This document shows, in pieces, positions 30,820 through 36,988 of a stretch of 57,712 nucleotides of DNA. Source of the DNA: a bacterium (GTDB lineage: Bacteria; Actinomycetota; Acidimicrobiia; Spongiisociales; ZC4RG35); contig JAHEDH010000003.1 in NCBI GenBank assembly GCA_024641285.1, positions 1-57,712 of the forward strand, written 5' to 3'. The position numbers and the translations under genes were made by a program. Below the pieces are notes generated by a model that had not been told where the DNA came from, searched no databases, and worked only from the letters and a program-made list of their open reading frames with translations. The first letter of the stretch is position 1; each line of letters begins with the position of its first letter.

Positions 30820-31587
30820 ATGGATGACCTACAGATTGCGCATGAGGCCGCCGAGGCGGGAGCCGAAGTGATCAGACGGCACTTCGGTCGTGGGGTCGAA
30901 GCCGAATGGAAGGGTGAGGTCGACCCGGTCACGGCGGTCGACCGTGAAGCAGAAGAGGCGGTGCTCGCGGTCATCCGACGGCGCCGGCCGTCCGATCGCA
31001 TACTGGCGGAGGAATCCGGCGGTGACGACTGGAACGAGGGTCGGGTGTGGATCGTCGACCCGCTCGACGGCACTGTCAACTTCGTCCACGGCCTGCCGCA
31101 GGTCGCCACCTCCGTCGGGCTTCGGTCGGACGGCCGTGGGCTGGTCGGCGTTGTCGCATCGGTGGTGAATCGTGAGGTCTTCGCCGCCGAGTCGGGGAAC
31201 GGCGCCACGCTCAACGGCAAACCGATCCACGTCTCATCGGAGCCGACGCCGTCCCGCGCGCTGGTCGGCACCGGATTCGCCTACGACCGGCAGCAACGCG
31301 CCCAGGAGATGGCGAACACGCTGGCCGGGGTGCTGCGCGAATTCCAGGGGATTCGCCGCATCGGCTCCGCCGCACTCGATCTCTGCTGGGTGGCGGCCGG
31401 CCGCATGGATGCCTACTGGGAGTACGGGGTGAGGCCCTGGGACACGGCCGCAGGGGCACTCATCGTCGCAGAGGCGGGCGGCCGAGTGACCGCGTTCGAC
31501 GGGATGCCGTATCCGCTCGACGACCCTGGCATCGTGGCAACCAACGGTCTGGTCCACGACGCACTCCTGCGGGCGATCCAACCGTGA
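30820..31587 (+). CDS. Inositol monophosphatase family protein (SuhB-like)
   Basis: [32 protein letters not shown]. Confidence 0.92.
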
Positions 31588-33005
31588 CCCTGTACGAAGT
31601 CGATGCCGTCATCGATCGGACGGGCCTCATCGGTCGTCGCCTCGAGGTCGGCGAATCGACGGTCACGCTTGCGGACGAGAGCGGGCGAGCCGACGCCGGA
31701 ATCGTGCGGATGCCGGGTTTCATCGTCCCGGGACTCCGCGACGCCCACATCCATCTGGCATCGATCAGCGCGGCGACGACCGGTGTCACGCTCGCCGGTG
31801 CCCGGGACCTCGACGAGGTGAGCGAGCTGCTGGGTCGACACGGCGCCGGCGACATCGTTGCGATCGGATTCGACGAGACGGAGATGGCGGGAGCCGAGCT
31901 TCTCACGGCCGCCGAGCTCGATTCGGTCGTCGGCGACCGGGCAGTGCTCGTGTACCGAGTGTGCGGGCACATCGCCATGGCGAGCTCGGCAGCACTCGAC
32001 CGAGCAGGCGTCGGTGCCGCGACGCCTGATCCTCCGGGCGGATCGATCGACCGCGATCGCTCGGGACGACCGACCGGAGTCCTGCGGGAGACGGCGATCG
32101 ACCTCGTCTCGACCACGATGGAAGACACCGAACGCGGGGTGGGCGACGATCAGCTGTCGGCCACGATCACCCGGCTCCTGGAATTGGGACTGACATCGGT
32201 GACGGCGATGGTCCCCGCCGGCGCACCGGCGTGGTGTGGCCCCGATGACGAGCTCGACCGCCTGCTCGACCTCGGTGGAGGCCACGATCTCGGGATCGAC
32301 GCCGTGCTCATCTCGGATCGGGTCGAGGATCTCCGCTTCCACGCAGGGCGACTCGACGGCGAAGCGCTCCGGTTCGGAGGTTGGAAGGGCTTCGCCGACG
32401 GCAGCCTGGGTGGCCACACCGCAGCTCTCACGGCGCCGTATGCAGATCAGCCGGGGAACAGCGGGACGCTGAGGCAGGATTCGGATCGGTTCCGCGACCT
32501 CGCCGAGGCCGCCATCGAGCTGGACGGGTCGGTCTGCATTCACGCCATCGGGGATGAGGCCGTCTCGTCGGTCCTCGACTTGTTCAGCGACCTCGTCCGC
32601 CTTGGCGCGTCACCCGAGCGTCTCCGGGTCGAGCACGCCTCGATCCTGAGCCCGTCCCTGATCGATCGGATGGCCGACCTCGGGATCGTTGCATCCGTCC
32701 AGCCCGCGTTCGTCGCGTCCGACGCTCGATGGCTCGAACGGCGGCTCGGACCGACGCGAGCCAGGTGGGCCTATCCGTTCAGGTCGATGCTCGAAGCGGG
32801 CGTGCGGCTCGTCGGCGGTTCGGATGCCCCGGTCGAAGAGCCCGACCCGCTGGCGGGCGCCCGGGTAGCGGTCTCCCGGGCGGGATGGAGCGTCGAAGAG
32901 TCGCTCGGCCCCGACGAGGCGCTGGCGCTGTATGCAGACGGTGAGTTCACCGACAGAGCCGTCTGGGTGTCGTCAGACCTCGATCGCTTCGAGCGGCTGG
33001 CGTGA
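31584..33005 (+). CDS. YtcJ-like amidohydrolase (Amidohydro_3)
   Basis: [33 protein letters not shown]. Confidence 0.88.
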
Positions 33006-33006
33006 C

Positions 33007-33237
33007 TCACCCGCGCAAGTGGGGGGCGACGTCCGATTCGTACTCGGCGTGCCGCTTCGTCTCCTTCTTCGAGTAGACGAGATCCCCGTCGACGGTCACT
33101 TCGAATACGCCTCCACTGGACGGGATCAGATGCACGTCATAGCGCGGTCCGAACTCCTCGAAGATCTCCTCAGCCATGCTCACGGCACGGCCCGTGTAGT
33201 TTCAAGAGCGGCAGAACTCGATGGTCACATTGGTCAT
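33007..33237 (-). CDS. SelW/SelT/SelH (Rdx) family selenoprotein, CxxU (not in ORF track)
   Basis: MTNVTIEFCRS-TGA-NYTGRAVSMAEEI...LIPSSGGVFEVTVDGDLVYSKK. In-frame TGA at 33204-33202 occupies the Rdx redox position. TACGAT -10 7 nt before the ATG. Confidence 0.9.
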
Positions 33238-33268
33238 GTCCGCCATCGTAGGAGGCAGCCGGAGCCGA

Positions 33269-33700
33269 TCAGAAGTGCTGATCGATGAGGATCGAGTTGC
33301 CGTCCGGATCGACGAGCGTGATATGACCAGGGCCGGAGTCGGCCTCCACCCGCTCGACAAGAGCGATCTCCTCGGCTTCGAGCCTCCGTTGGATCTCCCG
33401 AACGTCGGTGAACGATCCGAGCCGTTCCATCCGATTCGTCAGGCCCGGATTGAACGTGATCACGTTGCCTTCGAACATCCCGTGGAAGAGGCCGATCACG
33501 GCTTCACCGTTGACGAGGATCGACCAGGATTCGCCGTCACCGCCGGTCGGTTCGAAACCGAGACTGCGGTAGAAAGCAATCGATGCAGCCAGGTCGTCGA
33601 CGCTCAGCGAGATGGAGCAGGCGCCGAGCTCGAGATTGCCCGGCAGCCCCGGATACGCATTGTCGGCGACCGGCATTCCGGCCATCGGATCTTCGCTCAC
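33269..33700 (-). CDS. VOC/glyoxalase family protein
   Basis: [19 protein letters not shown] ... [12 protein letters not shown]. Confidence 0.88.
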
Positions 33701-33742
33701 GTGAACGCTCCTCGCTCGATTCCGATCCGAACATACGCGGGT

Positions 33743-34705
33743 TCACCGCCCATTCGCCGAGAAATGCTGAGGATCGGTGAGGGTCGCCCACCGCCCTCCC
33801 CAACCCCAGCCGATGGCGTCGAAGGCAGCCACAACCGCATCACCCTCGGAGATCATGCCCGGGAGCCCGAGCCCGCGGTCGGTGTATGCGGTCGCCAACT
33901 CCGGGAGCACGAGATCACCCTTCACGTACGGATTGTGGAAGGGATTGACGTCGATGGCGAGGCCATAGGCGTGTTGCGACCATGAGGCTCCCCCGGTGAC
34001 CGGACGGCAAACGAACGCGGTCGTCACGTTCCCATCGCCCGTCGGGGCCGCCTCGAGCTCTGGGGCGGCGATGATCCGGACCTCCTCGATGGGAAAGCCC
34101 GCTTCGAACATCGCCCGGAAGACCGACACCATGTCGTCGGCTGCGGACGCGTTGACGATCAAGTCCCCGAGATAGACGTTGCCGTCGAAGCCGACGTAGC
34201 TGACCGTCACGTAGGACAGCTCGTCGACGGTGACGGGACAGGCCTCCTGCCAGGTCGAGCGGGCGAGGACATCTAAGGGAATCGGGCCGGTCGTGGACTC
34301 GAAGGTGGGGCTGCCAGGGCGCAAGAAGGTCGACGGAGGGAACCGCCGGTCGATCAGCTCGAACGGAGTGGGCTGGATCTCGCCGTAGCCGTCGGGCCTC
34401 AATGGAAGCGGCCGCTCACCGAGCCAGTCGGGCCGCAGGAGCGAGCCGCGCCCGGGCCGGTCGACGGACTCTGCGGGCCGGTCGGCGAGCTGTTCCGAAG
34501 CCGCCTGATCGGCGAGCAGCTCTGCGACCGCGTCGTCGGAGGTCACAGGAGCGCCAGCCTGGACCGATTCCGTAGCCGGCAGATCGACCGGCGTCGACTC
34601 GGCGGCGAGGTCGGGCACCGTCTCCTCGGGTTGGAGAGATCCCGCCGGAGCGCCACAGGCGGTCGCGGCCAGCAAGAGCACAACGAGCAGCATCCCCCGG
34701 TTCAC
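33743..34705 (-). CDS. M15 family metallopeptidase lipoprotein (D,D-carboxypeptidase-like)
   Basis: Lipobox-like ATAC, SQHAYGLAIDVNP, WGWGG, DPQHF. TACATT 7 nt before the GTG at 34705. Confidence 0.85.
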   Translation of the reverse strand: MNRGMLLVVLLLAATACGAPAGSLQPEETVPDLAAESTPVDLPATESVQAGAPVTSDDAVAELLADQAASEQLADRPAESVDRPGRGSLLRPDWLGERPLPLRPDGYGEIQPTPFELIDRRFPPSTFLRPGSPTFESTTGPIPLDVLARSTWQEACPVTVDELSYVTVSYVGFDGNVYLGDLIVNASAADDMVSVFRAMFEAGFPIEEVRIIAAPELEAAPTGDGNVTTAFVCRPVTGGASWSQHAYGLAIDVNPFHNPYVKGDLVLPELATAYTDRGLGLPGMISEGDAVVAAFDAIGWGWGGRWATLTDPQHFSANGR

Positions 34706-34747
34706 GAGTGACAATGTACCGCACCATCACCCTTCCCCAGGGGTTGA

Positions 34748-35029: not shown

Positions 35030-36988
35030 ATGCTCTTCGACTACACCACCGTCAACCCGGAGTCCATCACCGCCGACGTCGACCGGACGCTCGCCGCCGC
35101 AGACAGGATCGTGGACGAGGTCGTCGCATCTGCCGCCGATCCCGCCTATGCCTCGACGCTCGGCCGACTCGAGGACGTCGGAGACATGACGGCATCGCTG
35201 TTCGGAAGGACGGCCTTCATGGGCTACGTCCACCCCGACGAGGCGACGAGAACCGCCGGACAACAGCTCGAGGAGCGGATCTCCAAGTGGGGCATCGACA
35301 TCTCGTTCCGGCCGGAGCTCTTCGAAGCCGTCAAGGCCTTCTCCCAGACCGACGAGGCTCGAGCACTCACCGGCGAACGGGCCCGGCTGCTCGAATTCAC
35401 CTTGCGAGACTTCCGGAAGGCGGGCCACGAGCTGTCGAAACCCGATCAGTCTCGCCTCAAGGAACTGAGCAACCGGCTCGTCGAGCTGGGAACCCGGTTC
35501 CAGAAGAACATCGCAGATGTCGACGACACCTTGGTCGTGACCCGCGACGACCTCGAAGGCATGCCCGATTGGTACGCCGACTCGCTCGAGCGGACCCAGG
35601 ACGGCGACGGGCTCAAGATCACGATGGCCTACCCCCATGTCATCCCATTCGTCCAGAACGCCTCCCGACGCGATCTGCGAGAGGCGCTGATGTTCAAGTT
35701 CAACAATCGGGCACGCGAGGCGAATCGACTCATCCTTGCGGAGGCCGTAGAAGTCCGCCAGGAGATCGCCGAGCTCTTCGGCCAGGAGTCCTGGGCCAAT
35801 CACCTCCTCGACGAACGCATGGCCGAGAACCCCGAGAACGTCTTCGACTTCTACGACTCGCTTCGCGATCCGCTGCAAGCTGCTGCGCGGGAGGAGATCG
35901 CGCTCATGACCGAGCTGCTGCGACGCGACACGGGCGACGACACCGCCGTCCTCCAGTCGTACGACTGGCAGTACTACGACACACTCCTCCGCAAGACCGA
36001 GTACGGCGTCGACCCCAACGAGGTGTCGCAGTACTTCGAGTTGGGACAGGTCCTCGACGGCATGTTCGAGGTCACCGGAGATGTGTTCGGCCTCACCTAC
36101 GAGCGAGTCGATGCTCCGACGTGGCACCCCGACGTCATCACGTACGCGATCCACGATTCGGGGTCCGGTGACCTCATCTCGCACTTCTACATGGACCTCT
36201 TCCCCCGTGAGGCGAAGTTCAGCCACGCCGCCGCATTCCCACTCGTGCCGGGACGGCGTCTGGCGGACGGCTCCTATCAGCACCCGGTCTCGGCGATCGT
36301 CGCCAATGTCACCAAGCCGACCGACGAACGCCCTTCGCTCCTCCAGCATCAGGAGGTCGAGACGATGTTCCACGAGTTCGGTCACATCCTCCACCAGACA
36401 TTGACCACGGCCGAGTTGGTCCGGTTCTCGGGAACCAGCGTGGAACGCGACTTCGTGGAGGCGCCGTCGCAGATCATGGAGCACTGGACATGGAAGCCCG
36501 ACGTGCTCCAACGGTTCGCTAAGCACCACGAGACGGGCGAGCCGATACCAGAGGACCTGGTGGATCGACTCGTCGCAGCCAAGAACCTCAACGTCGCGCT
36601 CACGAAACTCAGGCAGATGACGTACGGCACACTCGACCTGAAGCTCCACGGGCCCAACCCCGACCGCGATCTGGACAAGGCACTGGAGGACGCCAACGCC
36701 GTCTCGCTGTTGCCGCTCCACGAGGGCACGTTCTTTCCCGCCAGCTTCGGGCACATGTTCGGATACGACGCCGGTTACTACGGTTATCTGTGGTCCGAGG
36801 TCTATGGCGACGACATGTGGTCACGCTTCGAGGAGGAGGGTTACACCAGCCCTCGAGTCGGTGCCGACTACCGACGCGAGATCCTCGAAGCCGGGGGAAC
36901 CCGAGACGGCATGGAACACCTCCGTGCGTTCCTCGGGCGCGAACCCGACAACTCCGCCTTCCTCGTCAATCTCGGCATCGTCGGGTGA
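35030..36988 (+). CDS. M3 family metallopeptidase (thimet oligopeptidase-like)
   Basis: FHEFGH, DFVEAPSQ, YDAGYYGYLWS. Confidence 0.95.
   Translation: MLFDYTTVNPESITADVDRTLAAADRIVDEVVASAADPAYASTLGRLEDVGDMTASLFGRTAFMGYVHPDEATRTAGQQLEERISKWGIDISFRPELFEAVKAFSQTDEARALTGERARLLEFTLRDFRKAGHELSKPDQSRLKELSNRLVELGTRFQKNIADVDDTLVVTRDDLEGMPDWYADSLERTQDGDGLKITMAYPHVIPFVQNASRRDLREALMFKFNNRAREANRLILAEAVEVRQEIAELFGQESWANHLLDERMAENPENVFDFYDSLRDPLQAAAREEIALMTELLRRDTGDDTAVLQSYDWQYYDTLLRKTEYGVDPNEVSQYFELGQVLDGMFEVTGDVFGLTYERVDAPTWHPDVITYAIHDSGSGDLISHFYMDLFPREAKFSHAAAFPLVPGRRLADGSYQHPVSAIVANVTKPTDERPSLLQHQEVETMFHEFGHILHQTLTTAELVRFSGTSVERDFVEAPSQIMEHWTWKPDVLQRFAKHHETGEPIPEDLVDRLVAAKNLNVALTKLRQMTYGTLDLKLHGPNPDRDLDKALEDANAVSLLPLHEGTFFPASFGHMFGYDAGYYGYLWSEVYGDDMWSRFEEEGYTSPRVGADYRREILEAGGTRDGMEHLRAFLGREPDNSAFLVNLGIVG

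Follow-up and report, generated by a model that had tools for sequence, protein, structure and literature searches.

Small bacterial proteins that resemble selenoprotein W (SelW) and carry a CxxU motif were listed among the bacterial selenoproteins in 2006, with few Cys homologues (PMC1794560), and bacterial SelW-like selenoproteins have been catalogued by Zhang and co-workers (PMC1794560, PMC2398784 and PMC1088965). As described in the available text of these surveys, they share with the gene reported here a small Rdx-domain protein, the CxxU motif, a SECIS hairpin immediately downstream of the UGA and few Cys-form homologues in users of selenocysteine (Sec). No member from the Acidimicrobiia is named in the available text of two of the surveys (PMC1794560 and PMC2398784), whereas the gene is traced here through one order and one class. 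Among known structures, the Cys-form Rdx proteins (PDB entries 2fa8, Atu0228; 3dex, SAV_2001; 2obk, 2oka, 2ojl and 2p0g) have the same fold (TM 0.76–0.89, r.m.s.d. 1.1–1.7 Å), with the redox motif in the same place and an identity of 26–37% to the SelW-like protein. However, these proteins contain CxxC followed by W (or R-W), involve no recoding and are about 100 amino acids long as deposited, whereas the protein described here contains CxxU followed by N-Y. Mammalian selenoprotein W (2npb) shares both CxxU and the thioredoxin-like fold (TM 0.78, E = 1.1e-6), although the identity is only 28%. In eukaryotes, the insertion of Sec makes use of a SECIS in the 3'-UTR and of different factors. The family has long been known and is abundant in bacteria, and the recoding mechanism is textbook knowledge; the gene of the window, by which we mean the whole stretch of 57,712 nucleotides that was analysed, is a further member and leaves Sec biology unchanged.

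The gene and its surroundings are summarized in Table 1. Coordinates and translation agree with a minus-strand frame of 76 codons that is broken only by a TGA at codon 12, and the frame fills the gap between the Glyoxalase-family ORF on one side and the Amidohydro_3 ORF on the other. When read through this single internal TGA, the N-terminus is MTNVTIEFCRSU, so that the predicted IEFCxxU is present in the translation together with the downstream signature GGVFEV, VDG and LVYSK. The original prediction, that of a hidden CxxU selenoprotein gene of the Rdx/SelW type, is supported by the family, the fold, the conservation of the TGA, a covarying hairpin and the presence of the sel genes. Judging from the sequences, this is very probably a genuine selenoprotein gene decoded by means of SelB and SECIS, from which we infer the incorporation of selenium.

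Table 1. Features of the SelW-like locus (positions are those of the window)
Feature	Position	Strand	Remark
SelW-like (Rdx family) gene, full; predicted selenoprotein gene	33007..33237	-	76 sense codons and terminal TGA stop; start ATG 33237-33235, stop TGA 33009-33007
In-frame TGA, codon 12	33202..33204	-	Predicted to be read as Sec; second redox residue of C9-R-S-U12
Cys9 codon	33211..33213	-	First residue of CxxU; invariant column C9 in the 30-locus alignment
SECIS-type hairpin inside the coding sequence	33172..33192	-	8 bp stem, 5 nt loop CGUGA (33184-33180)
-10-like hexamer TACGAT	33245..33250	-	Predicted promoter; 7 nt upstream of the ATG
56-aa ORF from Met21	33007..33177	-	Shown by automatic annotation instead of the full gene; database protein P0002
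Amidohydro_3 ORF, convergent neighbour	31584..33005	+	Pfam 233 bits; conserved syntenic partner
Glyoxalase/VOC ORF, upstream on the same strand	33269..33700	-	Pfam 25.1 bits; stop 31 nt before the SelW ATG
Peptidase_M15_4 gene	33743-34714	-	
M3 peptidase gene	35030-36988		

The family searches were run with Cys substituted for Sec. The protein matched Pfam Rdx (PF10262) with 72.9 bits (cut-off 22.6; E = 2.5e-20) and NCBIfam TIGR02174 (CXXU_selWTH) with 58 bits against a cut-off of 34.2, which, together with a fitting fold, bears out the Rdx/SelW-type assignment. The best-scoring NCBIfam model was the equivalog NF041051 (SelTWH_Campy; 79 bits, E = 2.3e-22), the curated cut-off of which lies at 88 bits, so that the protein is not filed there. 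A profile built from 30 orthologues matched eight PDB sequences, with E values ranging from 7.4e-18 (2fa8 from Agrobacterium) to 1.1e-6 (mouse SelW, 2npb), and the Sec column aligned with the second Cys of the CxxC motif in 2fa8, where the motif is CTQC, and in 3dex. As seen in the AlphaFold2 model calculated on the orthologue alignment (pLDDT 96.4), the CxxU motif is located between strand 1 (residues 2–9) and helix 1 (residues 15–32), which is followed by strands at residues 33–40, 45–49 and 52–56. The best PDB hits obtained with Foldseek were all SelW-related (TM 0.76–0.89), with thioredoxins far behind; the TM values were 0.81–0.89 for bacterial SelW-related structures (2fa8 and 2obk) and 0.78 for mouse SelW. 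By profile, by the position of the motif and by fold, the protein is a member of the Rdx/SelT–SelW–SelH family with a thioredoxin-like fold, and only one Rdx gene was found in the genome.

From its family and fold, the SelW-like protein most likely works as a CxxU thiol–disulfide oxidoreductase; we know of no bacterial SelW-like member with an assigned substrate. A genuine selenoprotein might instead bind or deliver selenium, or serve as a regulatory binding partner, rather than being a catalytic oxidoreductase. The structural homologue 2obk entered the PDB as a 'putative Se binding protein', and the neighbourhood, with its amidohydrolase and M3 peptidase genes, points to no redox pathway, both of which would suit such a role; however, the CxxU occupies the thioredoxin active-site position, and the family is placed with the thiol oxidoreductases in the available text of two surveys (PMC2398784 and PMC1794560). 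We consider a non-catalytic role of this kind to be unlikely and retain the oxidoreductase as the preferred reading.

The neighbourhood was also considered as a clue to function in its own right and was set aside, as the synteny with the amidohydrolase and the M3 peptidase is indicative of inheritance and gives no hint of a pathway. In 18 of the 30 loci, an ORF homologous to the amidohydrolase likewise converges on the SelW-like gene, and in nine of the 30 the M3 peptidase gene adjoins the SelW-like gene directly in divergent orientation. In the window, the SelW-like gene is separated from the M3 peptidase gene by the Peptidase_M15_4 and Glyoxalase/VOC genes, which seem to have been inserted at the genus level into a conserved order of genes; the Glyoxalase/VOC neighbour is genus-specific, with a homologue found only in L019–L021 among the 30 loci. 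No NCBIfam family was matched by the Amidohydro_3 and Glyoxalase-family neighbours, and no Pfam match was obtained for the overlapping ORFs 32932-33288 (+), 33221-33985 (+), 32771-33010 (-) and 33202-33360 (-).

The full gene had been expected to be missed by gene callers, and the database entries are indeed fragments. The window's own database protein, P0002, is a 56-aa piece from which the active site is absent, the ORF listing of the window yields a 58-aa version from the GTG at 33183, and 105 of 111 database relatives are 43–63 aa long, too short for the active site; the four short relatives that were inspected all start downstream of the TGA. Source names such as 'selenoprotein W-related protein' or 'Rdx family protein [Acidimicrobiia bacterium]' among the relatives show that the family is recognized automatically; the records nevertheless contain neither the active site nor the Sec codon. 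The annotation is corrected here in that the database protein for the window is a fragment without its active site. Since the database entries are too short, inventories of redox proteins and of selenium use in the Acidimicrobiia undercount the SelW-like gene.

Taken at face value, the same entries would mean that the true product is the short downstream ORF (56–58 aa, starting at Met21 or at the GTG of Val19, which is invariant) and that the upstream 11 codons are not co-translated. TGA-blind gene calling would, however, produce just such entries, and the short product would lose strand 1, the CxxU and the start of helix 1 from a fold that is modelled at a pLDDT of 96. Moreover, neither C9 nor the TGA varies, L020–L022 have Thr in place of Met21 and a -10-like element precedes the upstream ATG in 23 of the 30 loci. 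A product confined to the downstream ORF is very unlikely on these grounds, and the full frame from the upstream ATG is preferred.

The leaderless -10 element that had been proposed for this gene gains comparative support, as TANNNT occurs 4–10 nt before the start codon in these 23 loci compared with 0.7% of positions drawn at random. Of the seven loci that lack TANNNT, five have a Shine–Dalgarno-like motif instead. With a TANNNT hexamer shortly before its start codon and no Shine–Dalgarno sequence, the gene of the window resembles a leaderless actinobacterial transcript. Scans of positions 32700-33800 found neither a sigma-70 promoter with two hexamers nor a terminator. The SelW-like mRNA is probably leaderless or near-leaderless. 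Leaderless mRNAs are common in Actinomycetota. If the mRNA is leaderless, its 5' end would precede the Sec-UGA by only 33 nt and the SECIS by 45 nt, and to our knowledge there is no described example of Sec recoding so close to a leaderless 5' end.

The prediction that the organism decodes Sec is confirmed to the extent that selA, selB, selC and selD were all found in the same genome (224 contigs, 89.5% complete, 4.78% contamination). The tRNA-Sec (selC) has the anticodon tca and scores 69 bits, selA scores 439.7 bits and is directly followed by selB, and selB contains the GTP_EFTU, SelB beta-barrel, SelB-wing_2 and SelB-wing_3 domains. The selD gene is itself of the Sec form, with a TGA in frame within the loop of the active site, H-G-A-G-U-A-C-K (contig C106:12911-13834, + strand, outside the window). 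The sel genes are on other contigs of the same bin, so that their linkage to the SelW-like gene rests on binning; the GC content is 0.654–0.659 on all four contigs, and the relatives carry the same genes. Within the order, selA was found in 55 of 61 genomes (42 of 44 among those of high quality), in all 33 genomes with the TGA form of the SelW-like gene, and the gene was found in none of the six genomes without selA. The accompanying claim that Sec decoding is uncommon in Actinomycetota has to be given up in view of these figures for the order and of the phylum as sampled here, where 167 genomes out of an even draw of 251 have a selA that exceeds the curated cut-off (eight of the 251 are flagged unpublished).

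The UGA could also be read outside the Sec pathway, either through a reassigned code (Trp or Gly) or by near-cognate read-through, and a few database relatives that carry W at both motif positions (P0075–P0081) indicate that some pipelines translate TGA as Trp. However, TGA is the main stop codon of the genome, ending 1638 of 2033 long ORFs as well as the SelW-like gene itself, and the sole tRNA with the anticodon tca, and hence the only TGA reader, is tRNA-Sec, which excludes a change of code. As the full Sec machinery is present and position 12 is the redox Cys of the family, any decoding other than as Sec is scarcely plausible. Among the relatives just mentioned, P0075–P0077 and P0081 (72–73 aa, full length) read Y-W-G-M-W-N-Y, which suggests translation of TGA as Trp by some pipeline, and possibly a UxxU or WxxU variant.

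Further in-frame TGA codons were observed elsewhere in the genome. A molybdopterin oxidoreductase outside the window (contig C148:883-2154, + strand) contains one, in the context S-C-N-R-T-U-H-A-P-S-V, and by its sequence looks like the α-subunit of a Sec-containing formate dehydrogenase. Three AhpC-TSA-type (peroxiredoxin-like) matches (C155:1316-1672, C117:6-341 and C120:16606-16893, all on the + strand) contain one each, in the UxxC contexts W-U-P-Y-C, W-U-P-W-C and G-U-L-T-C, and are candidate Prx-like selenoproteins. The genome would accordingly encode a selenoproteome that looks functional and comprises six candidates or more, namely SelD, the FdhA-like enzyme, the three UxxC peroxiredoxin-like proteins and the SelW-like protein.

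Conservation of the TGA was followed at several levels. Of the 61 genomes of the order, a set that includes the genome of the window, 34 gave a match; in 33 genomes the gene contains a single in-frame TGA, and two weak matches of 36 bits, which resemble paralogues, contain none. The loci of 30 of the 33 TGA-form genomes were fetched, the other three being known only as one-TGA matches, and C-x-x-TGA stands in one column in all 30, with C9, U12, Y14, R17, A18, V19, G43, S56, K57 and H63 as the invariant columns of the alignment. A public scan with one genome per species gave 498 confirmed relatives, of which the best 80 were retained; TGA is found at the position of codon 12 in all of these 80, some of which are the same records as the genomes of the order, so that the two counts are not independent. 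The alignment of homologues, in which Cys and TGA might have alternated at this codon, thus shows TGA in the same column throughout both sets. In an even sample of the class (151 genomes), 67 genomes have a match and 65 of these have the TGA. One row (L036) of the alignments and counts comes from a genome flagged unpublished, and the conclusions are the same without it.

Column entropy peaks at third codon positions both upstream of the TGA (0.89, 0.74 and 1.13 for the three positions) and downstream of it (0.63, 0.52 and 0.96), which indicates a single reading frame under protein-level selection across the TGA. Judged by the conserved column and by the conservation of the protein on either side, the TGA is functional and not a lesion. 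A pseudogene or an assembly error, in which the second Cys codon (TGC or TGT) of a CxxC Rdx gene had been hit, would take one substitution and would agree with the treatment of TGA as a stop by gene callers, but it has practically no credibility given the same TGA column in 33 genomes of the order, 80 of the best 80 public loci and 65 genomes of the class, the identical TGA in contigs from two samples of one study and the in-frame conservation of the N-terminal 11 codons. With the sel genes present and the TGA shared across the order, the codon is not peculiar to one strain of an organism devoid of Sec machinery. The sole variant between the two samples is at window position 33199, where one contig of the second sample has G>A (+ strand); this strain-level change is synonymous in Asn13, right after the Sec codon.

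A SECIS-type hairpin is located within the coding sequence, with the sequence GGCCGUGC-CGUGA-GCAUGGCU (33192-33172). Its stem begins 9 nt after the UGA and its loop 17 nt after the UGA, and it appears in the minimum-energy structure calculated for 71 nt surrounding the TGA, although these 71 nt taken together do not fold more stably than shuffled sequences (z = 0.44). The available text of PMC13188914 (legend to Fig. 2) gives as constraints on a bacterial SECIS a loop of 3–9 nt, an upper stem of 4–16 bp, a G within the first two nucleotides of the loop, a UGA–loop distance of 16–37 nt and a minimum free energy of at most -7.5 kcal/mol. The hairpin falls within all of these, with a loop of 5 nt in which G is second and is followed by U, a stem of 8 bp, a distance of 17 nt and an energy of -11.9 kcal/mol, but its loop departs from the optional 'N1...N2 pair' sub-pattern of the consensus in the same source. 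Among 4000 random in-frame positions from the long ORFs of the same genome, 10.1% pass the constraints at -7.5 kcal/mol or below and 1.8% have a hairpin as stable as -11.9 kcal/mol. In view of these chance rates in a GC-rich (65%) genome, the hairpin in a single sequence is suggestive, and it is the comparative data that carry the argument.

Across the 30 orthologues, 89.6% of the cells are paired and four of the eight pairs show a compensatory change, as in the replacement of G-C by A-U seven times at pair 14-32 and of U-A by C-G three times at pair 18-28. This level of covariation was reached by none of 500 shuffles, a control that related sequences can exceed without any structure, and pairing falls to 20–43% when the partner is shifted by 1–3 columns. 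G22 and U23 of the loop are invariant. Synonymous sites are much less variable in codons 7–12 than in codons 13–19 and are unusually constant within the hairpin, which overlaps the conserved R-A-V-x-M, so that part of the conservation could be at the protein level. The hairpin is retained in relatives with a GC content of 30–33% as CCGUGC-AGUUA-GUACGG, and it offers a clean comparative example of a SECIS that is kept in genomes from 30% to 68% GC.

Two other hairpins had been named as SECIS candidates, and both exist in the sequence, but neither is the best-supported stem at 33192-33172, which overlaps the first of them. The stem GCCGT-GAGC-ATGGC shares its 3' arm with the best-supported hairpin and uses another 5' arm; 94% of its cells are paired, but it shows no compensatory change, is broken in eight of the 30 loci and scores no higher than any of the 500 shuffles. 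The stem CACGG-N6-CCGTG is paired in 70% and is no better than shuffles. The search for a bacterial SECIS therefore ended with a third hairpin, which lies within the published constraints and covaries, but not with a family match: a search of positions 32900-33350 against Rfam returned only three chance-level matches of the snoRNA type (E = 2.4–5.3) and no SECIS family.

In the mechanism that we propose, the UGA at codon 12 would be decoded as Sec. The hairpin in the coding sequence would act as a bacterial SECIS to which SelB binds through its C-terminal winged helix, and SelB would deliver Sec-tRNA(Sec), for the synthesis of which SelA would use the selenophosphate provided by SelD. No such hairpin accompanies the terminal TGA, which would stop translation. 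The product would be a small thioredoxin-fold protein in which Cys9-x-x-Sec12 would most likely cycle between the selenol/thiol and selenenylsulfide states, and its mRNA would probably be leaderless and driven by the -10 element 7 nt before the ATG.

In a literature search on selenoproteins in the Acidimicrobiia, a 2026 preprint on Actinomarina (10.64898/2026.04.03.716425) was the only relevant report found, and the term 'Acidimicrob' does not occur in Peng et al. 2016 (PMC5029168). The available text of the preprint reports universal Sec machinery, a Sec-form SelD and, as the most abundant 'uncharacterised' selenoprotein family, a protein of 78 aa without a database hit. In our class sample, one genus with genomes of about 0.9–1.1 Mb has the TGA-form SelW-like gene in 32 of 35 genomes, and in the three genomes of this genus that were fetched (L135–L137; G407, G341 and G367) the protein is exactly 78 aa long, the DNA has a GC content of 30–33% and the hairpin is kept. 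From the class, the genome size of about 1 Mb and the GC content, we infer that this genus is Actinomarina. If this is right, the unnamed 78-aa family of the preprint is SelW-like, and a likely identity can be offered for an abundant marine selenoprotein family described as 'uncharacterised'. The broader reading could well go either way: that the gene is a core, vertically inherited selenoprotein gene of the Acidimicrobiia (TGA in 65 of the 151 genomes sampled), that its product is probably the 78-aa family of Actinomarina and that its mRNA is leaderless in most members of the order.

The register of the hairpin appears to be lineage-specific. In the lineage described here, the stem starts about 9–11 nt after the UGA and the loop is CGUGA, GGUCG or AGUUA, whereas in more distant, Chloroflexota-type relatives (among L049–L128, for example L072, L094, L099 and L108), and likewise in some Actinomycetota MAGs, the stem is about 5 nt further downstream and the loops are GGA, GUU or GGUCU. 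In the Chloroflexota-type relatives the stem starts about 16 nt after the UGA, so that the register of the recoding hairpin is shifted within one orthologous gene family.
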